Shown here in pieces: positions 1,795-50,584 of a stretch of DNA of 64,000 nt (positions within the stretch are counted from its first letter, which is position 1; each line of letters begins with the position of its first letter). The stretch spans positions 4,244 to 68,243 of the forward strand of contig JBDGRL010000012.1 in the NCBI GenBank assembly GCA_042218065.1. The letters are read 5' to 3'. A program made the position numbers and the translations under genes. The notes beneath the pieces were generated by a model. It did no database searches, had not been told where the DNA came from, and saw only the letters and a program-made list of their open reading frames with translations. The DNA comes from Candidatus Magasanikiibacteriota bacterium. Its GTDB lineage: Bacteria > Patescibacteriota > Patescibacteriia > Magasanikbacterales > UBA922.

Positions 1795-3588
1795 TTATCG
1801 CTTCAACACGGACATATACGCCTCCTTGGGTATATCGACGCTGCCGTGCTGTTGCATTTTCTTTTTTTGTTCTTTTTGCCGCTCCAGCAGCTTTCTCTTT
1901 CTAGTCACATCACCGCCGTAGAGGTCTTCCGTGACATTTTTTCTTCTGGCGGATAGATGTTCGGCTGCCACTATATCACCACCTACTGCTGCTTGTATCT
2001 TAAGTTTAAACTGTTGTCGCGGCAGAGTATCCGCCAGAGATTCCACCACCTTTCTTCCAACTTGTTGAGCTTGGTCCTCCCATACCAGCAGTGATAGTGA
2101 GTCTACTTTTTCTTCTGCCACTAGTACATCCATTCGTACTACATCAGCTTCTCGGTACTCATCAAATTCATAGCTGAGGGATGCGTACCCTTTGGAGGCA
2201 GATTTTAGCTTATCGTAAAAGTCTGTAATCAGTGCAGCTAAAGGCATTTTATATGTCAGTATCACCCGTTGTGTATCATCAGTATTTAAATGCTCTCTAG
2301 TATGGTAGTTTCCTTTTTTATTTTCCAACAGTTGCATCACATCACCGATATATTTTTCCGGGGTCAGTATTTCTACATCCATCCAGGGTTCTTTAATGGT
2401 GTCAATTTTTGGTCTCTCCGGTAGGTCCTCAGGACTTTTGACATTTATCTGTTCACCGTCGGTTTTTGTGACTTTGTATTCCACCGAAGGGACTGTAGCA
2501 ACGATATTTAGATCGAACTCGCGCTCCAGACGTTCTTGGAAAATCTCTAAGTGCAGCATACCTAAAAAACCGCACCTAAAGCCATAACCCAAAGCAGGCG
2601 AGTGGTCCGGCCGATAAGTAAGTGCAGAGTCACTAAGCTTGAGCTTTTCTATTGCTTTTCTCAGATCTTTTGATTCATCGCCCTCTTGTGGAAAGATACC
2701 GGCAAAAACTCTTGGTTTTACTTCTTTGTACCCGGGTAGAGGCTTATCAACGGGACTTCCTTGATTAGTGATTGTGTCTCCGACTTGTACTTTGTTTATA
2801 TCTTTCAAATCGGTGACTAAGTATCCTATTTGTCCTGTTTCTAGCTTTTCTTTTTCTTGCATTTTAGGGGAGTGGTAACCAGCTGCCAGTACTTTTGTCT
2901 CAGCTCCTGAGCGCATTAGCTCAATCTCTTCGTCTGTTTCAGCTTGACCCTGCATAACTCGTACTGAGGCGACTACACCTCGGTAATCATCATAGTGAGA
3001 GTCAAAAATAAGCGCCTTCAGCTTGTCCGAGTCGGGGCTTATATCCGGCGGAGGTGTTCTATCTACTACAGCATCTAAAACCTCTTCTACACCTTCTCCT
3101 GTTTTGGCGGAGCAAGTTAAGATATCATCTATGTCACAGTTGAGAAGTTCAGCCAGCTCGATTTTTCGTTTGTCTAAATCAATATTATCCAAATCTATCT
3201 TGTTCAACACCGGTATGACCTCTAAGCCTTGCTCTTGGGCAAGGTACAGATTAGCGATAGTCTGGGCTTGGACGCCCTGAGAAGCATCGACCAGCAAGAT
3301 TACACTCTCTACAGCTGCAAGAGATCGGGACACTTCATAGTTAAAATCGACATGGCCCGGTGTGTCTATCAGGTTTAAGGTGTGGTCTCTGTATTTCATA
3401 CGGACAGGCTGCAGCTTGATAGTAATACCCCGTTCTTGTTCTAGATCCATAGTGTCTAGGTGCTGGTCCGACATTTCATCATCTCTGATGGTTTTGGTCA
3501 TCTCCAAAAATCGGTCTGCCAGAGTAGATTTGCCGTGATCTATGTGAGCTATTATTGAGAAGTTTTTTATTTTATTTTCTTTGCTCAT
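1795..3588 (-). CDS. lepA: Elongation factor 4 (LepA)
   Basis: 597 aa. GTPase motifs AHIDHGKST, DTPGHVDF and NKID are present, and length and domain order are typical of LepA. Confidence 0.97.
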   Translation of the reverse strand: MSKENKIKNFSIIAHIDHGKSTLADRFLEMTKTIRDDEMSDQHLDTMDLEQERGITIKLQPVRMKYRDHTLNLIDTPGHVDFNYEVSRSLAAVESVILLVDASQGVQAQTIANLYLAQEQGLEVIPVLNKIDLDNIDLDKRKIELAELLNCDIDDILTCSAKTGEGVEEVLDAVVDRTPPPDISPDSDKLKALIFDSHYDDYRGVVASVRVMQGQAETDEEIELMRSGAETKVLAAGYHSPKMQEKEKLETGQIGYLVTDLKDINKVQVGDTITNQGSPVDKPLPGYKEVKPRVFAGIFPQEGDESKDLRKAIEKLKLSDSALTYRPDHSPALGYGFRCGFLGMLHLEIFQERLEREFDLNIVATVPSVEYKVTKTDGEQINVKSPEDLPERPKIDTIKEPWMDVEILTPEKYIGDVMQLLENKKGNYHTREHLNTDDTQRVILTYKMPLAALITDFYDKLKSASKGYASLSYEFDEYREADVVRMDVLVAEEKVDSLSLLVWEDQAQQVGRKVVESLADTLPRQQFKLKIQAAVGGDIVAAEHLSARRKNVTEDLYGGDVTRKRKLLERQKEQKKKMQQHGSVDIPKEAYMSVLKR

Positions 3589-3670
3589 TTTTATTTGTTT
3601 GGCGGTTAGTTTAGCAATTTTTTGAATTTTAGTAAAGATAAGATTCTTGCGTATTTATAAGGTTTATTTT

Positions 3671-24180: not shown

Positions 24181-24202
24181 CCCAGCAGCTTTAGCCACTG
24201 GG
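24181..24202 (-). terminator. Putative terminator of the G+C-rich minus-strand gene
   Basis: The minus strand reads CCCAGtggctaaagctgCTGGG followed by TACTTTTATTTT. It lies 50 nt after the stop at 24252. Confidence 0.45.
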
Positions 24203-24251
24203 TGTGGTGTGACCGTGCCCGTAGAGTCGGCGGGGGTAGGTCGGAATACCC

Positions 24252-24617
24252 TCAATCCTTGAGGTAGACGTCGACGATGATCGGTGGATTTTTGTCATCG
24301 TTGACTACGGTGATTTCGGCTCGGAACCGCTCGTCTTCGAGAGCGAGTTTGTTGAGATCCGTTTCGACCACTTCTTTCATTTCGGCGAGAGCTTCCTCTA
24401 GTGAACTGTAACTTTTATTTGTGGACCATTTCAACCTTTGATTGTAAATCTGTGCGTGTCCCTGCAACCGGGCGCAGTTTGCCGTGTTGGCGATCAGCTG
24501 CCCGTATTGTGAACTGAAATTGTGCGGTACGCACGAATTCGTTGCAAGCACTGTCGGCTTCTTTTTCAGAGCGAGTGTTTGGGCGATCTGGAGCTGTCCT
24601 TGGTCTTCGAACGACAT
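24252..24617 (-). CDS. Hypothetical 121-aa protein encoded in G+C-rich island 1
   Basis: The ATG at 24617 (MSFEDQGQLQ...) is preceded by GAGG plus 6 nt. By hand count, 24 of the first 40 third codon positions are G/C, against AT-rich third positions in neighbouring genes. I recognise no family. Confidence 0.65.
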   Translation of the reverse strand: MSFEDQGQLQIAQTLALKKKPTVLATNSCVPHNFSSQYGQLIANTANCARLQGHAQIYNQRLKWSTNKSYSSLEEALAEMKEVVETDLNKLALEDERFRAEITVVNDDKNPPIIVDVYLKD

Positions 24618-24684
24618 GGTGTACCTCGATTGCTTTGGGAGCGAAAAGAGCGAAACAATTCCCCAGCAACGGGAAATCAAGTGC

Positions 24685-24711
24685 AACTTATCATATATAT
24701 ATTGATGTCAA
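24685..24711 (-). promoter_or_regulatory. Candidate host-type promoter driving the island-1 gene
   Basis: On the minus strand: TTGACA (24711-24706), a 15-nt spacer ending TGa, then TAAGTT (24690-24685). This is the same extended -10 sequence as at 18089-18097. The spacer is shorter than optimal. Confidence 0.35.
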
Positions 24712-38709: not shown

Positions 38710-39309
38710 ATGGCGAATAGGCCCGAGAAGATATCAGAAGAAGAAATACACGAAAACCCCTGGTGGAGCTACAAGCACGATAAATATAAATTGCCAAGCG
38801 GAGAAGAGGGTGACTATTATTATGCTGATACAGAAGGTGGAGTAATGGTAGTGCCGGTACTCCCAGACGGGAAACTGGGACTGATTCGGCAGTACAGATA
38901 CCTTGCAGACAAAAAGGGGATAGAGTTCCCCGGAGGTCAAATACTGGAAAATAAGAGCCCTGAAGAGTCAGCCAGGGTTGAGCTGAGAGAAGAAACGGGG
39001 TTTATAGCTGATGGATTTACTCAGGTAGCTACATTTGAAGTAGCTCCCGGCTTTGCCAAAGACAAAGCACACTTATTTTTAGCTCAAGTTGAAGAGCAAA
39101 AACAGCAGCAACTAGACAGCTCTGAAAATATAGAGGTTTTATCGAGGAGAGTAGATGAATTTCAGGAAATGATTACACGTGGGGATATTTTCCACGGTAT
39201 GACTCTCGCCGCTTGGAGCTTGGTGTCTCCATATTTTGAACGTCTACATGAAGAACCGAGAGAAAAATCGCCAAAAGTAAAGCAGATTCTAGATAAAATA
39301 TTTCGTTAA
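38710..39309 (+). CDS. NUDIX hydrolase
   Basis: 199 aa. The Nudix box reads GGQILENKSPEESARVELREETGF. Confidence 0.9.
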   Translation: MANRPEKISEEEIHENPWWSYKHDKYKLPSGEEGDYYYADTEGGVMVVPVLPDGKLGLIRQYRYLADKKGIEFPGGQILENKSPEESARVELREETGFIADGFTQVATFEVAPGFAKDKAHLFLAQVEEQKQQQLDSSENIEVLSRRVDEFQEMITRGDIFHGMTLAAWSLVSPYFERLHEEPREKSPKVKQILDKIFR

Positions 39310-39866
39310 TGACAGCTAAATTTAATAAAAAGTCTGAAGAGGTCGTAGCTAAAAATCCTTATTGGGTTTATAAGCATGATAAATATGAGCTACCTAATGG
39401 AGAGGATAGTGACTATTATTATGCCGATATTAATGATTTTGTAATGATTGTGCCTGTCTTAGATAGTGAAACCTTAGTTGCTATTAAAGAGTTTAGGTAT
39501 TTACTTCAGGATTATAGCATAGAACTGCCGGGTGGTTATTGTGAGGATGACAAAACTATAAAAGATTCAGCTAAGAGCGAGCTTAAAGAAGAAACAGGAT
39601 ATGGTGTAGATAAGTTGGAGAAAGTTGGTAGTTTCGGGTCTTCGCCGGGGGTTATGAAAAACACCACCCATGTTTTTTGGGCTTCTGTATCAAAAAAAGA
39701 TAAACAAAAACTTGATGAGTCTGAGGAGATAGAAGTGCTTGAGATGTCAATAAAAAAATTTCAAAGGTTAATAAAAGAGGATAAGGTCAAACATGGAGAA
39801 ACATTGGGGGCATGGACACTAGTTTCTGCAAAAATACAAAGGGAAGTTGATAGTTTTAATATATAA
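39309..39866 (+). CDS. NUDIX hydrolase (tandem paralog)
   Basis: 185 aa. The Nudix box reads GGYCEDDKTIKDSAKSELKEETGY. It shares the N-terminal block NP(W/Y)W.YKHDKY.LP.GE..DYYYAD with the upstream gene. Confidence 0.9.
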   Translation: MTAKFNKKSEEVVAKNPYWVYKHDKYELPNGEDSDYYYADINDFVMIVPVLDSETLVAIKEFRYLLQDYSIELPGGYCEDDKTIKDSAKSELKEETGYGVDKLEKVGSFGSSPGVMKNTTHVFWASVSKKDKQKLDESEEIEVLEMSIKKFQRLIKEDKVKHGETLGAWTLVSAKIQREVDSFNI

Positions 39867-40888: not shown

Positions 40889-41740
40889 ATGAAAATATTA
40901 ATTATCGGTGATGGCTTCATTGGGAACAGATGTGCAAATTCCTGGGAAGATGAAGCTGTAATTTCAGACAAAAGGATAAACTCTACTGAAGATATAGTTT
41001 CTGAGATTGAAAAATACAAACCTGATGCCGTACTCAATGCGGCTGGGCGTACAGGAAGACCAAATGTAGACTGGTGCGAAGATAATCAGCTGGAAACTAT
41101 TGTAGGAAATACAAAGCTTCCGATAATACTAGCAGAAGGGTGTCATGAAACTGATACTTATTTGCTTCATGTTGGGTCCGGTTGTATCTTCTATGGTGAG
41201 TCACATCATGAGGACGGAAAGTGGAGAGAAGATGATCACGGCAACCCTGAACCAGTATATTCACGTACAAAGTGGGCTGCCGATCTTACTCTTTCAACTC
41301 TGGAAAATGTAGGTATTGCTCGGATCAGGATGCCGATTGATCATGTTCCCAGCCCCAGAAATCTGATTGATAAGCTAATAAATTATGAGAAGGTAATAGA
41401 TGTAGAAAACAGTGTTACTATCGTAGAAGATATGATAGACGTTTTTTATCAACTATTAGAGCAAAAAGGAGAAGAGATTTATCATGTAACCAATCCCGGC
41501 ACTTTAAAGCACAGGGATATCATAAGCCACTATAAGGAATATGTAGACCCCGACCATGATAATGAGTGGATTACCGAAGAGGAGTTAGTTGAACTGGGAT
41601 TAGCCGATAAAGAGAGATCAAACAATTTTCTTCACTCTAGTAACTTAGAAGATTTGGGGATAGAAATGAGGCACATTCAAGATGCTATCGAAGATACGAT
41701 GAAAAAATATGCAGAATTAAAGAAGATAAATAATGACTAA
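40889..41740 (+). CDS. NRS/ER-like NDP-4-keto-6-deoxyglucose 3,5-epimerase/4-reductase (SDR fold)
   Basis: 283 aa. The blocks GRTGRPNVDWCEDNQLETI, RIRMPI...PRNLIDKLINYEKVIDVENSVTIVEDM and HVTNPGTLKHRDIISHYKEYVDP match, from memory, the plant NRS/ER and RHM C-terminal domain blocks. Confidence 0.7.
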   Translation: MKILIIGDGFIGNRCANSWEDEAVISDKRINSTEDIVSEIEKYKPDAVLNAAGRTGRPNVDWCEDNQLETIVGNTKLPIILAEGCHETDTYLLHVGSGCIFYGESHHEDGKWREDDHGNPEPVYSRTKWAADLTLSTLENVGIARIRMPIDHVPSPRNLIDKLINYEKVIDVENSVTIVEDMIDVFYQLLEQKGEEIYHVTNPGTLKHRDIISHYKEYVDPDHDNEWITEEELVELGLADKERSNNFLHSSNLEDLGIEMRHIQDAIEDTMKKYAELKKINND

Positions 41741-42476
41741 TACACATCAACCTAAAAGTTACGATGAATTCGATAAACGCGAATGGTGGAATGAAGCTGA
41801 AAAAGAAATATTTAAAAAAGTTACCGCCGAAAAATTACCGGAATCTGTTCCAGATGCTGTAGTCTGGATCGAAGGGGATGCAAGGGATAGAGTAGATAAG
41901 ACTATGGAAGTATTGGAATATTATAACCATAAACCAAAGCTAATTTTATCCGGTGGGCTAGAAGGAAACCCATATCGACCAGACTCTGATTTGCGACCCG
42001 ACGGTGGAAATATCCCTTCCTGGGAGATAAAAGAAGAATTCCTCGAGCGAGGAGTAGATAAGGAAAATATAATTTTAGAAGATGAATCTCGCAACGGTTT
42101 AGAGCAAGCAATCAATGATGTCGAGATTGCAAAGAAACGAGACTATGACAGCTTAGTCTTGGTTGCTTCAACTTGGCATCAGCCGAGGTTATTTTTGACT
42201 TTTGTCAATCAGCTACATGAACAAGATGCTTTGGATATTGAGCTGATTAACCAACCGGAGACCAGCTATCCACTAGATAGAAAAATTCCTGGCCGAGGAA
42301 AAGATACATTGGAGATGCTACAAGAGGATCTCTGGAAAATAACTGAATACAATGAAAATGGAACTGTTGCTAAAGCTGAAGTTGAGCTGGAGTATTTGGA
42401 AAGGTTTGAGAAAGAGTATGAAGAAGTCAGTGAAAAGATTGAAGAAATTGTCGAAGAAATTGAGTTAAAAAAGTAG
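41733..42476 (+). CDS. YdcF/DUF218-family protein
   Basis: 247 aa. The regions PKLILSGGLEG...EDESRNGLEQA...LVLVASTWHQPRLFLTF match the DUF218 pattern. The C-terminal tail is acidic. Confidence 0.65.
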   Translation: MTNTHQPKSYDEFDKREWWNEAEKEIFKKVTAEKLPESVPDAVVWIEGDARDRVDKTMEVLEYYNHKPKLILSGGLEGNPYRPDSDLRPDGGNIPSWEIKEEFLERGVDKENIILEDESRNGLEQAINDVEIAKKRDYDSLVLVASTWHQPRLFLTFVNQLHEQDALDIELINQPETSYPLDRKIPGRGKDTLEMLQEDLWKITEYNENGTVAKAEVELEYLERFEKEYEEVSEKIEEIVEEIELKK

Positions 42477-42477
42477 T

Positions 42478-44010
42478 ATGTCACCCCCAAACCGAGGAGA
42501 TAATAATAGAGATCCTGGAAAATTAGGCGATGAAAATTCTGTAAATAACCCAGAACAAGAACCTGGAGAAGAGTTTTTAGACCCTAATCAAAAACCTGAA
42601 AGATATTATGGTGAGCCTGGTAGTTTGTCTGAAAAGTTAGAGTTAATAGATAAAGTTATTCTAAGAAGAGATGCTGATTTGTTAGTTGAGGAAGACTTAA
42701 TGACTGATGATCAATTGATGGAGTATTTAGTATTGGTTGAGGGTGAGCAGTCAGAGCAGATAGTTCGTATGATTAGAAGTTTTAACGTTTTAGTTGAAGA
42801 CTTTACTTCGCAAGATGAAGATCCTTTTTCAGTTGAGGGAATTAGAAAAATAGCTAATAGAACTGGCTTGGATCGTCCTAGTTTTTTTACCAAGATAGCC
42901 AAAGCATATTTTCACATGGGCCAATTTGATCCCTCTTTTTTTCTTACAAGTGAAAGATTGACAAAAGCGGTACTTGATCTAAAAGAGGGAGAAATTTCTC
43001 CGATAGAAAAAGCTGATGCGGTTGAAACCTTAGGTTCTATTCAGGATAAATTTGGAGATCAAGCCAGTGCTTATAAACTAAAAGAAAGCGGATTACAAGT
43101 TTTAAATCATTCAGATATGCAAGATGTAAATCAAGCATGGTTAAAAGCAAAGTGTCTCCACGGAATGGCTGACTATCAAATAGATGATGAGAGAGTTCCT
43201 AATGAAAAGATAGAAGATAGATTTGAAGAGGTAGAACAGATCCTCCGTGATATTCAAGATGAAGCTCATGTAGCTAGAACAAAACTAGATATAGCAAAGT
43301 TTCATATTCAAAATGAGGATTATAAAAAAGCTCACCAATATGCAAGCCAGGCTTATGAAGAATTACACGAAACTGGTTATATTAGGAAATTGCCGGACGC
43401 AGCTGAGATTATGAGGGATAGTCAAGAACAACTTAGTTCGGATGCACAAATTGTAAGAAGAATAGAACAAATCCAAACGCAAGACAGAGAAGCAATACAA
43501 CCTAAAAGAGAAGATTTAGTTGAACTTAAAGAAACAGAAGAAAAGTTAAAACCAGCTAGAGTTTTATTAAAACTCCCAAGCTCTTCTGGAGAAACTGTGT
43601 ATTTTGTTAAAAAAGATTCTGATGGAAGTTATGAGCTGCCAGAAATTGAAGGTTTGGAGAGTGGGGAGGGTTTTTCTAAGTTTGAAATGTTAAAAAATTT
43701 AGAAAGAATGCTAGCAGAGAATTTATCTGAGTCAGAAGATGCAGAATTAGAAAAAATTACATCTAATCATCCAGTCATTCCTACAGGTGAGGAAAAAAGA
43801 AGTGAAGATCGAGAGGTGCAATTATATAAAATAGATCTAACATCAGGACCACAAGATAAAATACCAGAGGTGAAACCTGGTGAGCTTGAAAAAAAAGAAA
43901 AATTTTGCTATGTTGCTATGAAATATGAAGAATTAAAGAGTAATCAAGAAAATTTTGATTCTGAATCGCAAAAATTGATTGAAGGAGAAATTGAATATCA
44001 AGGAGAGTAA
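42478..44010 (+). CDS. Hypothetical acidic protein
   Basis: 510 aa with host-like AT-rich codon usage. I recognise no motif. Confidence 0.7.
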   Translation: MSPPNRGDNNRDPGKLGDENSVNNPEQEPGEEFLDPNQKPERYYGEPGSLSEKLELIDKVILRRDADLLVEEDLMTDDQLMEYLVLVEGEQSEQIVRMIRSFNVLVEDFTSQDEDPFSVEGIRKIANRTGLDRPSFFTKIAKAYFHMGQFDPSFFLTSERLTKAVLDLKEGEISPIEKADAVETLGSIQDKFGDQASAYKLKESGLQVLNHSDMQDVNQAWLKAKCLHGMADYQIDDERVPNEKIEDRFEEVEQILRDIQDEAHVARTKLDIAKFHIQNEDYKKAHQYASQAYEELHETGYIRKLPDAAEIMRDSQEQLSSDAQIVRRIEQIQTQDREAIQPKREDLVELKETEEKLKPARVLLKLPSSSGETVYFVKKDSDGSYELPEIEGLESGEGFSKFEMLKNLERMLAENLSESEDAELEKITSNHPVIPTGEEKRSEDREVQLYKIDLTSGPQDKIPEVKPGELEKKEKFCYVAMKYEELKSNQENFDSESQKLIEGEIEYQGE

Positions 44011-44037
44011 AAATATTACGACTAAATCGAAACAACT

Positions 44038-44084
44038 GCAGGCATAGCTAGCTGGATTTTTTTAATTTAGCTAGGTGTGCCTGC
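44038..44084. repeat. 19-bp imperfect inverted repeat at the AT-to-GC composition boundary
   Basis: GCAGGCATAGCTAGCTGGA (44038-44056) pairs with 44066-84 across a 9-nt T-rich loop. Of 19 positions, 14 are Watson-Crick pairs, 4 are G-U pairs and 1 is a mismatch. Confidence 0.7.
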
Positions 44085-44176
44085 CTCGCTGAGGAGGACA
44101 CCCGCCAAAACTTCCCGCTGGGAATAAGTGGCGTCGTTATAGTCCGTAAACCTTTCCGCGAATGCGGAGGTTTGTG

Positions 44177-44791
44177 ATGAGTAACGAGCAACGGAGAGTC
44201 GTCTCGCTGGACGAAGTCCGCGAGACGCTCGCCGACGAATTTGGGGAAAAGGTCTTGATTGACCTGATTCCACAGATCGACGAGTCCCAGTGGGTCCTCG
44301 ACCTCTGGGCCGAGCTCGATGGGGCACAACCTCATGATGAGTGGGTCGCTGGTCGTCGAGATCGGCGATTCTTCGATGTGGGGGTTCGTAACCCCTATCT
44401 CGATCCCCCTCAAGGAGCGCCATGGGGGCAACTCGAGATCAGGGAGGAGCCGACGATTCAGCCGGACCAGTCCGGCAACCGGATCGTCGGGTACGTCCTC
44501 ATCGAGTCGCTTCGGCTCGAATACGGATCGGCCGTGCGTGTCACGGCCAGCTCCGTCTCGAACGATGAGGCGGAGATCTGCGTCGACGACCAGCCGGCGA
44601 TCGAGTCGGAGGACGAGGTCCACGGGATGTTTCGCACAAACGGCCCCCGAATCAACGGGGACGTGTTGGTGATCGAACGCCCGGTCGAATCCGCTGAGGG
44701 CGATGGGTGGGGAACCCCCAATGCCCTCATCAAGCAGGCCGAAGATCAAAAAGTCGGTCAAGGTCTGCGTCAAGCGGGCCTCGTCGAGTAA
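44177..44791 (+). CDS. Hypothetical 204-aa acidic protein encoded in G+C-rich island 2
   Basis: GGAGG (44166-44170) lies 6 nt before the ATG at 44177 (MSNEQRRVVSLDEV...). In the first 40 codons, 30/40 third positions are G/C against 11/40 second positions (hand count), a coding signature for this frame. I recognise no family. Confidence 0.7.
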   Translation: MSNEQRRVVSLDEVRETLADEFGEKVLIDLIPQIDESQWVLDLWAELDGAQPHDEWVAGRRDRRFFDVGVRNPYLDPPQGAPWGQLEIREEPTIQPDQSGNRIVGYVLIESLRLEYGSAVRVTASSVSNDEAEICVDDQPAIESEDEVHGMFRTNGPRINGDVLVIERPVESAEGDGWGTPNALIKQAEDQKVGQGLRQAGLVE

Positions 44792-44803
44792 TTGAACACC
44801 AAC

Positions 44804-44857
44804 ACCCCGAGTCGCGAACCCACGGACTTCACGGCCCGTGCTGAAGCGGCTCGGGGT
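44804..44857 (+). ncRNA. G+C-rich 12-bp stem enclosing an inner hairpin, directly after the island-2 stop codon
   Basis: ACCCCGAGTCGC (44804-44815) pairs with GCGGCTCGGGGT (44846-44857), 11 Watson-Crick pairs plus 1 G-U. The inner hairpin is CACGG (44821-25) with CCGTG (44836-40). Confidence 0.5.
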
Positions 44858-44860
44858 TGA

Positions 44861-44963
44861 GCCCCAGGAAAGGTAAGCCTGAGAATGGCGGAGCCGAATT
44901 TCCGAGAGGAGGGAGCCTAGCGTGTTAACGTGAGGCTAGCAGGTTCGAATCCTGCCCGGGGCA
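44861..44963 (+). ncRNA. Non-canonical tRNA-like element (T-arm plus acceptor-like helix; no anticodon arm identified)
   Basis: The T-arm GCAGG-TTCGAAT-CCTGC (44939-44955) is perfect. The 3' strand CCGGGGC (44956-62) pairs with GCCCCAG (44861-67) in 6 of 7 positions. The discriminator is A44963 and no CCA is encoded. An extra arm, AGCCT..AGGCT (44914-44937), is present. At 103 nt it is too long and irregular for a standard cloverleaf. Confidence 0.4.
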
Positions 44964-45001
44964 TTTTGCACGATTGTTCGATCTTTGTAGAATTTGGGGG
45001 A

Positions 45002-45066
45002 GCCTAGAACAGTTTGTTCTAGGCAATACAAAAGCTCACCAAATCTGGTGAGTTTTTGTATTTTTT
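45002..45066 (+). terminator. Tandem hairpins; the second is a strong rho-independent terminator
   Basis: Hairpin 1 is GCCTAGAACA/TGTTCTAGGC (45002-45024). Hairpin 2 is a 14-bp stem TACAAAAGCTCACC/GGTGAGTTTTTGTA (45027-45060) followed by TTTTTT. Confidence 0.75.
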
Positions 45067-45091
45067 GCTATAGTTTGAAAAAATAATTTTT

Positions 45092-46312
45092 GTGAAGGAA
45101 AAATTAGCTCGCAACCCAAAACTACTATTCTGGATTAATGCTTTGAAAAATGTGAAAGTTTTAAGCATTGTAATTTCTTTATTTTATCTTCACCGTGGTT
45201 TGAGTTTATCACAGATTTTTTATTTATCGATCGTCTGGGCGGTGACAAATTTACTATTTGAAATCCCTTCTAGCTACATGGCCGATAAGTGGGGCAGGAA
45301 GAAAACTTTATTTGTCGGTGCAGTCTCTTTTTTATTCTACTGGATTGTTTTGTTGGTTGGTGCTAGCTTTTGGGTATTTGCTTTTGCTATTTTTTTGTAT
45401 GCCTTTTCTTTTGCTTGTTTTTCTGGAACAGATGATGCTTTACTTTATGATACCAAAAAAGAGTTAGGCAAAGAGGCAGAAACTTTAGGTTCATTTGGTA
45501 AATATTACTCAGCCAAAAGGATTTTCAAAATTGCTGCTCCAATTTTAGGAGCAGTTATTGCTAAGGATTTACTTGAATGGCAATTTCAGCTAATCATCAG
45601 TATAGATATATTTGCTTCTCTGTTGGCTGTTATTATGACATTGTTTTTAGTTGAGCCCACTCACTACAAGGAAGTAAAACAAGAAGAGGCGGATATATTG
45701 TTAGATGCCTGGAATTTACTCAGCTCGAATAAAAATCTACTCAAAGCCATCTTAAATAAAACTCTGATTTTTATAGCTGGTTTTATAACTTTCCGCTATT
45801 ATCAAAAATTATTTGTCGATCTTGGTATGGCAGTAATAGCGATCGGTATCGGTTGGTCTATGTTTCAGGTAATAATGTTTTGGGGTAATCAAAAAATTAC
45901 TGAAGTCTTCAAAAATTATCCTTTGCCTCAAAGGATAGATTTCCTAAACTATATTTTTGCTGGTGTAATGAGTAGTTTTGTCGCTATTTATTTTATCGCT
46001 TCGGAGAGGTTTTATCTTCTATTTATTTTGTTTGTAGTGGCTCATATAGCCGAGACGCTTAGATATACTTTATTCTCCGAGATGTTCAACAAAAACTTCA
46101 AATCTTTCAATCGTTCGACAGCTTTATCTTTGTCAAATTTTCTTAAAAGTGTGCTAGATATTCCGTTGATATTTTTTGCCGGCTGGTTAGTTAGCCTCGA
46201 TATTATCTACCCTTATGTATTTGCTGCTATTTTAGCTGTTGTAGTTAGTTTGGTTGTTAGTCTCCACGGGTTAGGTTTATATGTTCAGAAAAAGCCAGTT
46301 AAAGCTTCCTAA
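45092..46312 (+). CDS. MFS transporter
   Basis: 406 aa with about 11-12 TM segments and the MFS loop motif MADKWGRKKT. It has a GTG start. Confidence 0.85.
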   Translation: MKEKLARNPKLLFWINALKNVKVLSIVISLFYLHRGLSLSQIFYLSIVWAVTNLLFEIPSSYMADKWGRKKTLFVGAVSFLFYWIVLLVGASFWVFAFAIFLYAFSFACFSGTDDALLYDTKKELGKEAETLGSFGKYYSAKRIFKIAAPILGAVIAKDLLEWQFQLIISIDIFASLLAVIMTLFLVEPTHYKEVKQEEADILLDAWNLLSSNKNLLKAILNKTLIFIAGFITFRYYQKLFVDLGMAVIAIGIGWSMFQVIMFWGNQKITEVFKNYPLPQRIDFLNYIFAGVMSSFVAIYFIASERFYLLFILFVVAHIAETLRYTLFSEMFNKNFKSFNRSTALSLSNFLKSVLDIPLIFFAGWLVSLDIIYPYVFAAILAVVVSLVVSLHGLGLYVQKKPVKAS

Positions 46313-46350: not shown

Positions 46351-46995
46351 ATGAATACCAGAAGTACACAAAAAACAAATGTAAACAAAAAATTTAGCCC
46401 TGGTCACTACGGATTTGTATTGAAGCCAGATTCCAAAATAAGAGAAAAAGTTGAGAAAATCCAGCAGGAATTTTGTCCGAATGTAGAATTTAAGGCTGGA
46501 GCAGATGGGGATATTCACCTTACTTTATATCATGCTCCAATAAGTACTGTTTCCAAGCCAAAAATAGATAAAATTATCAAAACCGTCGAAGCTACAGGAA
46601 TATTAGATGAAAGATTACAACTTAGAGAGTTAGAAATTTATGGAGAAACATTTCTATTTTGGAGTGTCTCAACTATTCCAGAAGTGTTGACTGAAGCTCA
46701 TAAAAAAGCTTTAAATTTGGCTAACTTTTTACAGAAAGAGGCTTCTGAAAGTAAAGAAAATTTAGCAGGTTTAAGCGAGAAAGAACAAGAAAATATCAAA
46801 AAATATAATCATCCGCTGGTAAAAGATTTATACAAGCCTCATATTACTATTGCTTATAACTCGACAGGAATAGAAGTTGAATCTAAAAAAATTGAAAATT
46901 TCTCTCATTCTGCTTCTATTGACATTGAAGAAATAAGTTTTGCTCGTATAGGTGATAATGGTCGGGTAGAAGAAAATTTACTTACAATTTCTTAA
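46351..46995 (+). CDS. 2H-phosphoesterase superfamily protein (LigT-like)
   Basis: 214 aa with two HxTx motifs, DIHLTLYH and KPHITIAYN, at the spacing expected for 2H enzymes. Confidence 0.7.
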   Translation: MNTRSTQKTNVNKKFSPGHYGFVLKPDSKIREKVEKIQQEFCPNVEFKAGADGDIHLTLYHAPISTVSKPKIDKIIKTVEATGILDERLQLRELEIYGETFLFWSVSTIPEVLTEAHKKALNLANFLQKEASESKENLAGLSEKEQENIKKYNHPLVKDLYKPHITIAYNSTGIEVESKKIENFSHSASIDIEEISFARIGDNGRVEENLLTIS

Positions 46996-46997
46996 TT

Positions 46998-47927
46998 ATG
47001 AAAAACACATCTATACTGGAGAAAAATCAAGAAGAGCTAGAAAAAATTATTCAAATATTAGAAGATGCAATTGGCCATAATGCACGAGTTGCCGGAATTA
47101 TTCAAATAGGAAGTTATGCTAATGGTGAGTCGGTACCAGGACTCTCGGATATAGATACAAGAGTGTATGTCGAATCTGATGAAGTATATATCTGGAATGT
47201 AGCTGGACACAAAACCAGCGAAGAAATTTATCAAGAGAATAAACTTGATGATTTTGTTGATGAATATGGAGAAAAGCCGATAGAAGATTTAACGTGGAAT
47301 AATTTTAATCTTCCTATGTGGGACCAACTAGAAGAAGAGTTTGGAGTCCAAATCGAGTTTGGACTTACTGATAAGAGGTATGCTGATTATGCATTGCAAA
47401 ATATTAAGAGTTCACCTACTAATGAGCATTCTTTCTTGATGAAACGAAGTATTATTTATGATCCGGATAATTTTTTATCACAATGGAAACAGAAGCTTTC
47501 CGGAGAAGTTTTTCCTACAATGGTAGAGTTTTACAAGGACCAATACCTCAGCGGTCTGTCAGATAAACTTTATAATAGCACAGAAATAACTGAAGGTGAC
47601 TTAGAAGAAATTGAGAGAAGAAATAAAATCCAATGGATCAAACGAGCAATTCGGCACATTAGAGAAGCTGTTACAACTAAAGTTTATGCCGCTACTGGAG
47701 AAATAGTTCATAAAAAAGACGATATCCTTGCTTTTTATAAAAAACACTTACCTGAAAGATACGATTTTGTAAAAAAATTATATCGCTGGAAGACAGACTA
47801 CGAAACAAGAAAAGAAATGATCAAAGATTGTCTAGAAAATCCTAAAAAATATTCTGAGAAGTTTGAAGAGTTGACTCCAAAGTTGGAGGAAGTTGTTAAA
47901 GAAGTCAGTAATTTGCGACTTAATTAG
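46998..47927 (+). CDS. Pol-beta-superfamily nucleotidyltransferase domain protein
   Basis: 309 aa. It has IGSYANGESVPGLSDIDTRVYV (the GS...DxD catalytic pattern) and a helical C-terminal domain. It begins 2 nt after the upstream stop. Confidence 0.75.
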   Translation: MKNTSILEKNQEELEKIIQILEDAIGHNARVAGIIQIGSYANGESVPGLSDIDTRVYVESDEVYIWNVAGHKTSEEIYQENKLDDFVDEYGEKPIEDLTWNNFNLPMWDQLEEEFGVQIEFGLTDKRYADYALQNIKSSPTNEHSFLMKRSIIYDPDNFLSQWKQKLSGEVFPTMVEFYKDQYLSGLSDKLYNSTEITEGDLEEIERRNKIQWIKRAIRHIREAVTTKVYAATGEIVHKKDDILAFYKKHLPERYDFVKKLYRWKTDYETRKEMIKDCLENPKKYSEKFEELTPKLEEVVKEVSNLRLN

Positions 47928-48196: not shown

Positions 48197-49048
48197 ATGA
48201 ATCTATCAGTAATTACCGTAACTTGGAACAATGAAGATGAAATAGCCGAGCAGATACGCTCGGTAAGATCTGCATGTAATGATATCGAATTCGAGCAGAT
48301 TATAGTAGATAATGACTCACCAGATGATACCGTAAAAGTTATTGAAAAAAATTTTCCTGAGGTGAAATTGATAGCTAATAAGGAAAATAAAGGCTTTGGT
48401 ACAGCAAATAATCAAGGAGTTGAACAAGCAGAAGGTGAATTTTTGTTGTTTTTAAATCCGGATATGAAACTAAAAGAGGGAAGCTTAGATAAGATAGTAA
48501 AATGGATGAGAGACAATGAAGATGTAGGAATTGCTTGTCCAAAGCTTATTAACGAAGACGGTAGTTTCAACGAGCATGCCAGTCCACGCAGTTTCCCTAC
48601 AGTTCTAGAGCAGCTAGCGATTATTTTCAAGATCCCTCACATTTTTCCATCTGTATTAGATAGATATTTAATGACAGATTTTGATCCAAGTAAGGAGCGA
48701 GAAGTCGATAGTGTCCGCGGATCTTTTATGCTGATGCGAAGAGAAATTGTAGAAGAACTAGGCTGGGCTTTCGATCCAAGATACTTCATCTGGTATGAAG
48801 ATGTAGATATCTGTCGTGAAGTAAAAAGCCTAGGCTACAAAGTAATGTATACTCCGGTAATTGAAGCAGTTGATTATGTCGGTAAGAGCTTCGGCCAGAG
48901 AAGAGGTCTATGGAAGCAAAAGAACTTTACTGAAAGTATGCTAAAATATTTCAAAAAATGGGAGCCATTCTATAAATGGATCTGGATCGCTATGGCTCGT
49001 CCGATTGGAATTTTTATGGTTTGGTTGCAAGAAAAAATTATAAATTAA
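48197..49048 (+). CDS. GT2 family glycosyltransferase
   Basis: 283 aa. Motifs are LSVITVTWNN, IVDNDSPDDT, NKGFGTANNQG, FLNPDM and YEDVD. Confidence 0.9.
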   Translation: MNLSVITVTWNNEDEIAEQIRSVRSACNDIEFEQIIVDNDSPDDTVKVIEKNFPEVKLIANKENKGFGTANNQGVEQAEGEFLLFLNPDMKLKEGSLDKIVKWMRDNEDVGIACPKLINEDGSFNEHASPRSFPTVLEQLAIIFKIPHIFPSVLDRYLMTDFDPSKEREVDSVRGSFMLMRREIVEELGWAFDPRYFIWYEDVDICREVKSLGYKVMYTPVIEAVDYVGKSFGQRRGLWKQKNFTESMLKYFKKWEPFYKWIWIAMARPIGIFMVWLQEKIIN

Positions 49049-49054
49049 GAAACT

Positions 49055-50584
49055 ATGCCTAAAACACCAGAGGAGAGAAAAAAAGAGCTGAAGCACAACC
49101 TCTCCCTAAAAATAAAAAAGTGGGTAAAAAACTCCAAAAAAAGCCTGAAGGAGCTAGCTACTACCTTATGGCCCAAAGCAAAAGAGGATAAATATTACAA
49201 AAAGAAGAAAGGAGGTTTAGTATTTGATGCTGAGGCATTTTTAAATGACTGGGCTGAAAATATATTGCAAGAAGAACGGGCGGAGCCGAATGATATCTCT
49301 TTTGTAGATAGACCGATTATAGAAACGGATGAAGGGGAAATAACTCCCGGGGAGGAGGAGTTTGAAAGTAAAAAAACAATTCCGAGAACACAATATCTAC
49401 AAGAAGTACTGCAAGAATTCGGTTATGATTTTTCTATTGTCGTAGGTAGCGATAGACCGGAGATGTTCAGAGAAGAACCTTATCAGGCTTATATGGTTCA
49501 AGATATAGACAGGATTGTGTTGGTAAACAACCAAGAAGAAGAAGCGACCTTCGTGATATTCGACAGTGATACGGAAGATCTATTTGACAGGCCTCAGCTA
49601 AAAGATGATCTTAAAAGTAGACCGGATGTAAAACGTATAAAATATGAAGGTAAAGAAAGCTGGCAAAATAAACTAAGGGAGTTATTGGAGGAAGACTATA
49701 ATTTAAAAGAGACTGAAGGACGTTTTCTCAGTTTCGATGAATTGAAAAAAGAAGTACAAGCAGCAGGGGTAGAAAGCAGTAGCGAATATCAAGAAGAACA
49801 AAAAGAACACGACAATTGGCCCAGCACCCCTAATAGAGCTTACTCCAAACAATGGTCAAGCTGGTACGACTTTTTAGGCAAGGAAAAGCCTAAAGAAAGA
49901 TTTCTCGGTTTCAATGAATTACAAAAAGAAATACAGGCAGCAGATATAATGAATCGGTCAGAATATAGAAAAGAACAAAAAGAACACGACAATTGGCCTA
50001 GCCAACCTTATAGAACATACTCCGAACAATGGATCGATTGGTATGACTTTCTAGAAAAGGAAAAACCTGAATATATTAGTTTCAATGAGTTAAAAAAAGA
50101 AGTACAATCTGCAGGAATAGAAAGTCGAAGAGAATATAGAGAAGAACAAAAAGAGCACAATAGATGGCCGTCTAATCCTGTTAAATATTATCAAAATAAA
50201 TGGAAAAATTGGTACGATTTTTTAGGTAAAGAGAAATCTGAATATCTTAATTTTAGTGAATTAAAAAAAGAAGTTCAAGCAACAGGTATAGAAAGTCATA
50301 TAGAATATATAGAAGAACAAAAAAAGCACGACAGTTGGCCCAGTACCCCAGATAGAATTTATTCAGAACAGTGGACTAACTGGTATGATTTTCTGGACAA
50401 AGAAAAACCCGAAGAAAAATTAAGCTTTAATGAGCTAAAGAAAGAAGTACAAGCAGCAAATATAAATACACAAAGAGAATATAGAGAAGAACAAAAAGAG
50501 CATAATAGATGGCCCTCTAAGCCTGAAGGATTTTATCAAAATAAATGGAAAAATTGGTACGACTTTCTAGGTAAAGAAAAATAA
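49055..50584 (+). CDS. Repeat protein with five ~57-aa W-rich repeats
   Basis: 509 aa. The C-terminal 287 aa consist of five copies of F.ELKKEVQ..GI....EY.EEQKEH..WPS.P...Y...W..WYDFLGKEK. Confidence 0.8.
   Translation: MPKTPEERKKELKHNLSLKIKKWVKNSKKSLKELATTLWPKAKEDKYYKKKKGGLVFDAEAFLNDWAENILQEERAEPNDISFVDRPIIETDEGEITPGEEEFESKKTIPRTQYLQEVLQEFGYDFSIVVGSDRPEMFREEPYQAYMVQDIDRIVLVNNQEEEATFVIFDSDTEDLFDRPQLKDDLKSRPDVKRIKYEGKESWQNKLRELLEEDYNLKETEGRFLSFDELKKEVQAAGVESSSEYQEEQKEHDNWPSTPNRAYSKQWSSWYDFLGKEKPKERFLGFNELQKEIQAADIMNRSEYRKEQKEHDNWPSQPYRTYSEQWIDWYDFLEKEKPEYISFNELKKEVQSAGIESRREYREEQKEHNRWPSNPVKYYQNKWKNWYDFLGKEKSEYLNFSELKKEVQATGIESHIEYIEEQKKHDSWPSTPDRIYSEQWTNWYDFLDKEKPEEKLSFNELKKEVQAANINTQREYREEQKEHNRWPSKPEGFYQNKWKNWYDFLGKEK
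49721..50581 (+). repeat. Five in-frame tandem repeats (units start 49721, 49898, 50069, 50240, 50414)
   Basis: By direct comparison of the units, the period is 171-177 nt. The repeats are entirely coding and lie inside CDS 49055..50584. Confidence 0.9.

Follow-up and report, generated by a model that had tools for sequence, protein, structure and literature searches.

A G+C-rich gene with hyper-structured RNA and a partly tRNA-derived 3' tail in Candidatus Magasanikbacteria

The formation of an mRNA 3' end by a tRNA mimic is known mainly from organelles and from vertebrate MALAT1. In the MALAT1/MEN-beta mascRNA module, a tRNA-like fold is found at the transcript end. Extensive self-pairing is known from RNA viruses with genome-scale ordered structure, from viroid-like RNAs and from fold-back mRNAs such as hok. 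To our knowledge, the RNA metabolism of CPR bacteria is almost unexplored. Plant mitochondrial t-elements undergo RNase P/RNase Z-type processing at mRNA ends (PMC1920247). Finally, displaced fragments of tRNA genes are found at the ends of genomic islands (Islander, PMC4383910).

The stretch of DNA analysed here, termed the window, comprises 64 kb of core chromosome from a Candidatus Magasanikbacteria MAG. Its G+C content is around 35%, with the exception of one block of approximately 0.93 kb (44040-44970) that reaches 58-66%. This block begins with a step up in G+C at around 44040 and contains a single + strand ORF, followed by a tail of 174 nt. The features discussed below are, in order:

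44038-44084, + strand: 5' hairpin with 21-nt arms, an inverted repeat paired in the MFE structure, at the start of the G+C-rich block

44153-44170, + strand: hairpin sequestering the Shine-Dalgarno GGAGG, which precedes the ATG at 44177 by 6 nt

44177-44791, + strand: island CDS encoding an acidic protein of 204 aa with a Nudix fold, from an orphan family; its coding RNA is hyper-structured

44804-44857, + strand: hairpin 1, a 12-bp G+C-rich stem (44804-15/44846-57) around a small inner hairpin, with pair probabilities of 0.9-1.0

44861-44868, + strand: candidate 5' acceptor strand GCCCCAG(G), the first 5 pairs with P >= 0.99

44872-44895, + strand: arm 1, GGU..GCC UGAGAAU GGC..GCC, from the MFE structure and the arm scan

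44899-44912, + strand: arm 2, UUUCC GAGA GGAGG with a GNRA-type tetraloop, P = 0.76-0.92 for the inner 4 pairs

44914-44937, + strand: long arm AGCCU-A-GCGU GUUA ACGU-G-AGGCU, located where class II tRNAs have their variable arm, P = 0.8-1.0

44939-44963, + strand: tRNA-derived segment, with the T-arm GCAGG UUCGAAU CCUGC (44939-55), the 3' strand CCGGGGC and the discriminator A, without CCA

45002-45068, + strand: host-like hairpin (45002-24), then an intrinsic terminator (45025-62) and a T-run, from inverted repeats

In terms of gene content, the domain scan assigns all ORFs of at least 150 aa in the window to core or cell-envelope genes. These include LepA, MurJ, a beta-CASP RNase, UvrABC, MraW, RecR, DnaB and MurA, as well as two NUDIX genes, dTDP-sugar enzymes, DUF218 and many GT2. 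Both flanks of the block consist of co-oriented genes of one cluster. No integrase, recombinase or transposase Pfam domain was found in any of these ORFs; an INT_rpt match at 49055-50584 is a repeat motif and has no integrase catalytic domain.

Some further observations concern the surroundings of the block. Two canonical NUDIX genes (38710-39866) belong to the same sugar cluster as the divergent Nudix-fold protein of the cassette. A second, smaller G+C-rich block is present at 24190-24690 (approximately 51-54% G+C), with a minus strand ORF of 121 aa (24252-24617) without a Pfam match; this block is not hyper-structured, with folding z of -0.7 and +1.4. As for the charge of the proteins, three of the four host proteins checked (41733-44010 and 46998-47927) have a pI of 4.5-5.0 and the fourth (46351-46995) a pI of 6.2, so that the island protein, with a pI of 4.4, is acidic like most of them. 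Such values suggest that the CPR bacterium is adapted to salt and that the cassette protein shares this adaptation.

The ORF of the block spans 44162-44791, with its stop codon at 44789-44791. The ATG at 44177 is likely the start codon, in agreement with the 204-aa NCBI protein P0001 ('Candidatus Magasanikbacteria bacterium'). The protein belongs to a tiny family. A full HMMER scan of 1.84 billion representatives returned only four credible relatives, with 31-45% identity, and two extra homologous loci came from DNA scans. A further candidate, P0004 (4122 aa), was rejected as a spurious, repeat-driven match. No match to the family was found in PHROGs, PADLOC, Pfam or the sequences of the PDB. 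All relative loci are on CPR-type contigs and adjoin sugar-nucleotide and glycosyltransferase genes, in clusters of which the family members are part.

That the ORF is truly coding is seen from the two relatives L003 (GCA_964511375.1) and L009, where substitutions at codon positions 1, 2 and 3 number 18, 15 and 73. In L009, TTA stands in place of the TAA stop codon of the homologous gene (1378-1480), and the ORF extends by approximately 30 codons into the conserved structured tail.

In both L003 and L009 the homologous gene is flanked by DUF218 and GT2, the same neighbours as in the window. For L003 these correspond as follows:

Window 41733-42476 and L003 5125-5823: DUF218

Window 48197-49048 and L003 7037-7909: GT2

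The identity between L003 and the window is 57% for DUF218, 61% for GT2 and 45% for the island protein. When compared to L003, the window lineage has extra genes on either side of the cassette, namely a 510-aa gene on one side, and MFS, 2H-like and nucleotidyltransferase (NTase) genes on the other. Since the same neighbours are found in related genomes, the cassette is most simply regarded as an old resident of this neighbourhood, and not as a fresh horizontal transfer. It keeps approximately 60% G+C in a genome of approximately 35%, and this G+C content looks as if it were being maintained. One option of the original prediction had the tail carried in from a high-GC donor, an idea that is weakened by these shared neighbours.

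The surroundings also bear on the possibility of an assembly chimera, in which a foreign G+C-rich fragment would have been joined to a CPR contig through shared tRNA k-mers. We consider this highly improbable, since homologous G+C-rich cassettes are present in the same neighbourhood on other CPR contigs, the flanks are co-oriented genes of one cluster, and the left junction of the block is continuous in an independent assembly (Logan, k = 31, sample SRR28304479, with 30-nt overlaps). What speaks for a chimera is that this same assembly breaks exactly inside the tRNA-like end.

We observed that the RNA of the whole block is self-paired to an unusual degree. For 44030-44970, the MFE is -468 kcal/mol versus -372 kcal/mol in shuffles (z = -12.95), and the antisense strand has a z of -6.9. 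The coding region alone gives z = -9.8 in the window, -7.9 in L003 and -8.4 in L009, with flanking host genes near 0. Two other relatives, L004 and L008, are equally G+C-rich and reach only -0.8 to -1.7. When synonymous codons are shuffled and the protein is kept, z is -5.45 in the window, -5.28 in L003 and -6.25 in L009, as against approximately 0 in L008 and L004 and +1.2 to +1.4 in host genes. The RNA structure of the coding region is under selection, and it is encoded through synonymous codon choice. The hyper-structured transcripts extend over:

Window: 44030-44970

L003: 5900-6945

L009: 700-1752

Furthermore, among the pairs of the MFE structure calculated from L003 only that changed on both sides in L009, 20 were kept and 6 broken; shifted controls kept 2-9 and broke 8-11. 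A coding-region architecture shared between the window and L003 was rejected, with only 19 of approximately 200 MFE pairs coinciding in a codon alignment. The conserved feature is heavy pairing, not one architecture. At the ribosome-binding site, L004 has a CCGC-loop-GCGG+GGAG hairpin comparable to the one that sequesters the Shine-Dalgarno in the window.

A hyper-folded transcript that maintains its G+C content is more surprising than its tRNA-like end. The unit of interest could then be the whole 0.94-kb transcript, vertically kept and self-paired to a viroid-like grade, with interchangeable structured 3' modules and a dual-function or replicon-derived nature. Structure, and not a donor origin, would explain the composition of the 'island', and the tRNA-like end would serve tRNA enzymes or a polymerase as a genuine 3' tag. 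The structured 3' modules would be the tRNA-like tag in the window and, in the sister lineage, the 340-nt RNA with its covariation. We regard this broad proposal as unlikely. An Obelisk-like interpretation was rejected, given that the protein is a beta-rich Nudix-fold one and the gene is chromosomal.

The tail follows directly after the stop codon. It folds into a hairpin plus a five-way junction, with an MFE of -78.4 kcal/mol and a z of -4.66 against dinucleotide shuffles. This fold is thermodynamically robust. In an ensemble calculated in a 476-nt context, five acceptor pairs have P >= 0.99 and the T stem 0.92, and both hairpin 1 and the long arm are close to 1.0. The 12-bp stem enclosing a second hairpin and the long arm at 44914-37 had both been drawn from the sequence beforehand, and are recovered here with these high probabilities. 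Two other proposed pairings fail in the same ensemble. A GGAAA/TTTCC helix (44867-71 with 44899-903) has P = 0.009, as UUUCC instead pairs with GGAGG around the GAGA loop, and a switch between conformers by pairing of GGGG (44853-56) with CCCC (44862-65) has P of approximately 0.

As for the ends of the RNA, the hairpin at 44038-44084 presumably marks the 5' end of the transcript and the terminator at 45025-62 the end of the primary transcript. Directly 3' of the tRNA-like end there is also a promoter-like site (TTTGCA, 17 nt, TAGAAT), with two hairpins and the intrinsic terminator downstream of it. The region 44965-45068 could be a separate small RNA of approximately 65 nt, or only consensus noise.

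Two further elements of the tail were considered. Hairpin 1 has a GTTGAGC that fits GTTRRRY, but it was rejected as an integron attC, since it comes with neither an inverse core nor a cassette array and the relatives have no equivalent. The 10-nt sequence GGGAGCCTAG occurs as an exact direct repeat at 44911-44920 and 44998-45007. Its copies bracket the loop side of the long arm, the tRNA piece and 34 nt of trailer, and each copy opens a hairpin. We estimate ourselves, with no tool result, the chance expectation of such a close pair at approximately 0.1-0.3.

In terms of tRNA likeness, the clearest signal is at the very end of the tail. A canonical T-arm, GCAGG TTCGAAT CCTGC, runs directly into the 3' acceptor strand CCGGGGC (7 nt), after which come a discriminator A and no encoded CCA, just as first noted. 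The 25-mer at 44939-44963 agrees at every base with the 3' end of a tRNA-Arg(TCT) that ARAGORN calls on an IMG/VR contig. The 22-mer GGTTCGAATCCTGCCCGGGGCA is unique within the window and has zero matches in 100 window shuffles, even with 3 mismatches. Because of this identity and this absence from shuffles, the segment is derived from a tRNA gene, and is not a chance resemblance.

Only these last 25 nt of the tail are demonstrably tRNA-derived. The proposed 5' acceptor strand, GCCCCAG at 44861-67, is present as described, but at chance level. A 5' strand pairing 6/7 with CCGGGGC within approximately 117 nt upstream is found in 32% of dinucleotide shuffles, and the same is true for 18 of 73 native island windows (25%). 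The candidate strand is not beyond chance, with an equivalent in approximately 30% of comparable sequence. The acceptor stacked on the canonical T-arm is thus predicted with high probability, yet its 5' strand is within chance expectation.

The remaining parts of a tRNA are missing. An explicit scan of 44868-44938 for a 5-bp stem closed by a 7-nt loop that has U33 and R37 was negative. Arm 1 is not an anticodon arm, because its position 33 is G. No D-arm was found in the tail, and no D-loop partner for the elbow of the T-loop. ARAGORN gave only artefactual calls with lowered thresholds, nothing credible, and its intron options were empty at normal thresholds, so that an intron-containing or archaeal-type tRNA was rejected. 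Rfam (Rfam 15) returned nothing at gathering scores across the window. The partial match to RF00005 covers the T-arm only (model positions 47-63), with 13.6 bits versus a threshold of 29 and E = 9.8; apart from it, nothing credible was found in 44600-45200 at E <= 10.

The tail is accordingly no standard or class II tRNA: it has no D-arm and no U33/R37 anticodon arm, and it is below the Rfam threshold. This agrees with the earlier conclusion, drawn from the absence of both arms, and neither ARAGORN nor Rfam calls a normal tRNA here. A complete tRNA-like fold is not sustained, as the pairings proposed for it are either expected by chance or thermodynamically negligible. At the left border, GCAGGCATAGCTAGCTGGAT was also tried as a tRNA 5' half. 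Its look is D-arm-like, but it has no Rfam tRNA match and its acceptor does not match the strand at the right end.

A reduced tmRNA-like gene spanning 44804-44963 is effectively refuted. The pair 3-70 is C-G (C44863-G44960) and not the G3-U70 of tmRNA, as had been pointed out, and there are no pseudoknots. ARAGORN -m does give a call at an 80% threshold, with the tag AEPNFREEGA, but this tag is without the usual hydrophobic end, there is no call at the default threshold and no Rfam tmRNA match was found.

Decay of a whole tRNA gene would be another way to obtain such a tail. A complete tRNA-Arg would have followed the cassette, with its D and anticodon arms since overwritten, and a single G-to-A change is indeed all that separates GCCCCAG from GCCCCGG, the corresponding strand in the matching tRNA-Arg. 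However, the 71 nt between the strands hold no trace of a D or anticodon arm, with the 3' 25 nt perfect, which is not uniform decay; ARAGORN, as said, calls nothing credible. We find this very unlikely.

The tail might also be a stand-alone tRNA-like small RNA of approximately 103 nt, for example a decoy or substrate of tRNA enzymes, or a 3' 'genomic tag' by which this unusually folded RNA would attract a polymerase or reverse transcriptase. Its five-way junction, its class II tRNA topology, its robust predicted fold and the viroid-like degree of pairing of the transcript are in line with this. There is, however, no Rfam family beyond the T-arm match even at E = 10, no reverse transcriptase, replicase or Ro-like gene among the scanned ORFs, and the element is unique to one genome. 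This makes a stand-alone RNA quite doubtful.

The break in the independent assembly gives a closer view of the tRNA-derived piece. Logan contig L012 carries the 510-aa gene together with the island and stops at 44968, and contig L011, which carries the MFS gene, begins at 44945. From this end and this start, with overlaps of 30 nt, a further node can be deduced by k = 31 graph logic:

44939-44974, + strand: 36-nt unit GCAGGTTCGAATCCTGCCCGGGGCATTTTGCACGAT, which begins exactly with the first T-stem base and extends 11 nt past the discriminator

This unlisted node would imply a second sequence context of the unit in SRR28304479.

Such a second context fits an inert tRNA-gene fragment, in which 44939-~44974 would be the 3' part of a tRNA-Arg gene, displaced or truncated, that was left by recombination at the T-arm. 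The closure of the acceptor would then be a chance pairing in G+C-rich sequence, and the site-specific or illegitimate event could have brought the MFS, 2H and NTase genes, absent at this place in L003. Several points agree with this. The significant tRNA likeness is limited to the 3' 25 nt and lies exactly at the boundary between G+C-rich and A+T-rich sequence, the element is not conserved in homologues, and the extra genes of the window lineage flank the cassette on both sides when compared to L003. The assembly break, in turn, fits a 36-nt unit in a second context, like the att identity blocks of the Islander type (PMC4383910).

On the other hand, ARAGORN at default settings finds no intact tRNA or tmRNA gene in the 64-kb window. 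None of the ORFs of at least 150 aa has an integrase or transposase domain, the window contains neither a second copy of the tRNA-like segment nor a flanking direct repeat, and the flanks are core, syntenic chromosome. The second context is also deduced rather than seen. The classical att-site scenario of the original prediction is weakened by the same absences. Overall, we judge an inert fragment rather unlikely, and still a serious alternative.

As for the downstream genes, the 2H-like gene is under the Pfam cut-off for LigT (E = 5e-4), and the match of the nucleotidyltransferase gene to NTP_transf_2 is above the cut-off. Both are A+T-rich host genes. A connection of the tail to this pair had been hinted at and finds no support, as nothing ties either gene to the tail.

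A contrasting picture is seen for the tails of the relatives. In L003 and L009, the same position is occupied by a G+C-rich tail of approximately 340 nt:

L003 6580-6945 and L009 1387-1752: conserved multi-helix 3' tail, approximately 340 nt after the homologous gene

It has 11 compensatory pairs among 98 predicted ones, from two sequences only, and the L003 tail has no Rfam match at E <= 1. Structured tails are selected in this sister lineage, and the L003/L009 tail is a candidate for a new structured RNA. At the tail position of L004 there is a hairpin region of approximately 100 nt, and L008 has, instead of a structured RNA, a second small G+C-rich ORF (3444-3665; 73 aa, basic, helical-looking). 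L005, L010 and L006 have a terminator only.

The tRNA-like element is absent at every homologous locus. Homology of the window tail to those of L003, L009 or L004 was rejected, with local alignment scores within the shuffle distributions. No relatives of the window tail were found with three DNA patterns in viral contigs, with one pattern in metagenome contigs, or by BLAST versus phages and plasmids. Since synteny argues that the cassette is old, the perfectly canonical T-loop would have been either kept or recently recruited.

We tentatively favour a 3' UTR module of tRNA origin that would act in end processing or protection, much as a t-element does. The 174-nt tail would form the 3' UTR of an extremely folded, G+C-rich mRNA that codes for a Nudix-fold protein, whose gene would be a long-standing resident of a cell-envelope sugar cluster. 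Its first module would be the very stable 12-bp hairpin (44804-57), followed 3 nt later by a multi-arm fold of approximately 103 nt, with the closing helix stacked on the tRNA-derived T-arm. The primary transcript would continue to the terminator at 45025-62. The acceptor/T-arm minihelix could be recognised by tRNA-processing enzymes, with RNase P cutting at 44860/44861 and RNase Z or exonucleases trimming after A44963. The mRNA would be left with a terminal 12-bp hairpin that blocks 3' exonucleases. As a minimum role, the module would be one more stabilising fold at the end of a structure-selected RNA. Transcription through the tail, any cleavage and any benefit we infer.

In favour of such a processing module is the layout, with a stop codon, a stable hairpin, a 3-nt spacer, the minihelix and, approximately 60 nt further downstream, the only terminator. 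So are the identity of T-arm and 3' strand to a real tRNA-Arg end, the high ensemble probability of the acceptor and T stems, the selection on the structure of the transcript and the selected structured tail that the sister lineage has at this position. Against it, the tRNA-like end is found in no homologous locus, the window tail is no more similar to the other tails than shuffles are, the T-loop elbow has no D-loop partner and the 5' acceptor strand is not significant. The processing module and the inert relic remain close readings. Of the four origins first suggested, the processing mimic and the tRNA-gene relic (as att-site remnant or pseudogene) survive and none is proven; the underlying observation is real but narrower than described, with its interpretation partly supported.

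If the tRNA-like end is processed, this would be mRNA 3'-end formation through a tRNA mimic in a bacterium, in the style of tRNA punctuation. If the element is only a relic of a tRNA gene, it is an ordinary finding. A protein-coding gene approximately 25 points above the G+C of its genome is here folded beyond chance through its synonymous sites, and the usual reading of such G+C islands as recent horizontal transfer may be wrong in this case. The locus is a tractable case of selection on mRNA structure.

Compared with the known systems, the tail is like t-elements and mascRNA in that a predicted tRNA-like fold without a usable anticodon arm ends an mRNA, with a stabilising structure just upstream, and that RNase P and RNase Z could define transcript ends by cutting its acceptor/T-arm minihelix. 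Those systems are organellar or eukaryotic and their cleavage is mapped, whereas the tail of the window belongs to a CPR bacterium, is known from sequence and has a statistically insecure 5' strand.

With the Islander fragments, the tail shares a 3' tRNA piece that starts from the T-arm at a compositional boundary, and possibly an identity block that reaches a few nucleotides past the tRNA end. Unlike them, the window lacks an intact partner tRNA gene, an integrase and a second repeat, its flanks are syntenic core and its 'island' is 0.93 kb.

In the case of class II tRNAs (Leu, Ser, Sec) and tmRNA domains, the resemblance consists of the 7/5 acceptor/T-arm geometry, the canonical T-loop, the long arm and the five-way junction. 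The differences are the D-arm, the 7-nt anticodon loop with U33, the G3-U70 pair, the usual tag frame and an ARAGORN or Rfam call, all absent from the tail.

Lastly, unlike RNA viruses, viroid-like RNAs and hok, the island transcript comes from a chromosomal gene that has a promoter-side and a terminator-side context and whose product is a Nudix-fold protein of 204 aa, and neither a replicase nor an antisense partner was found. Like them, it is self-paired far above shuffles throughout, coding region included, and its ribosome-binding site is occluded.
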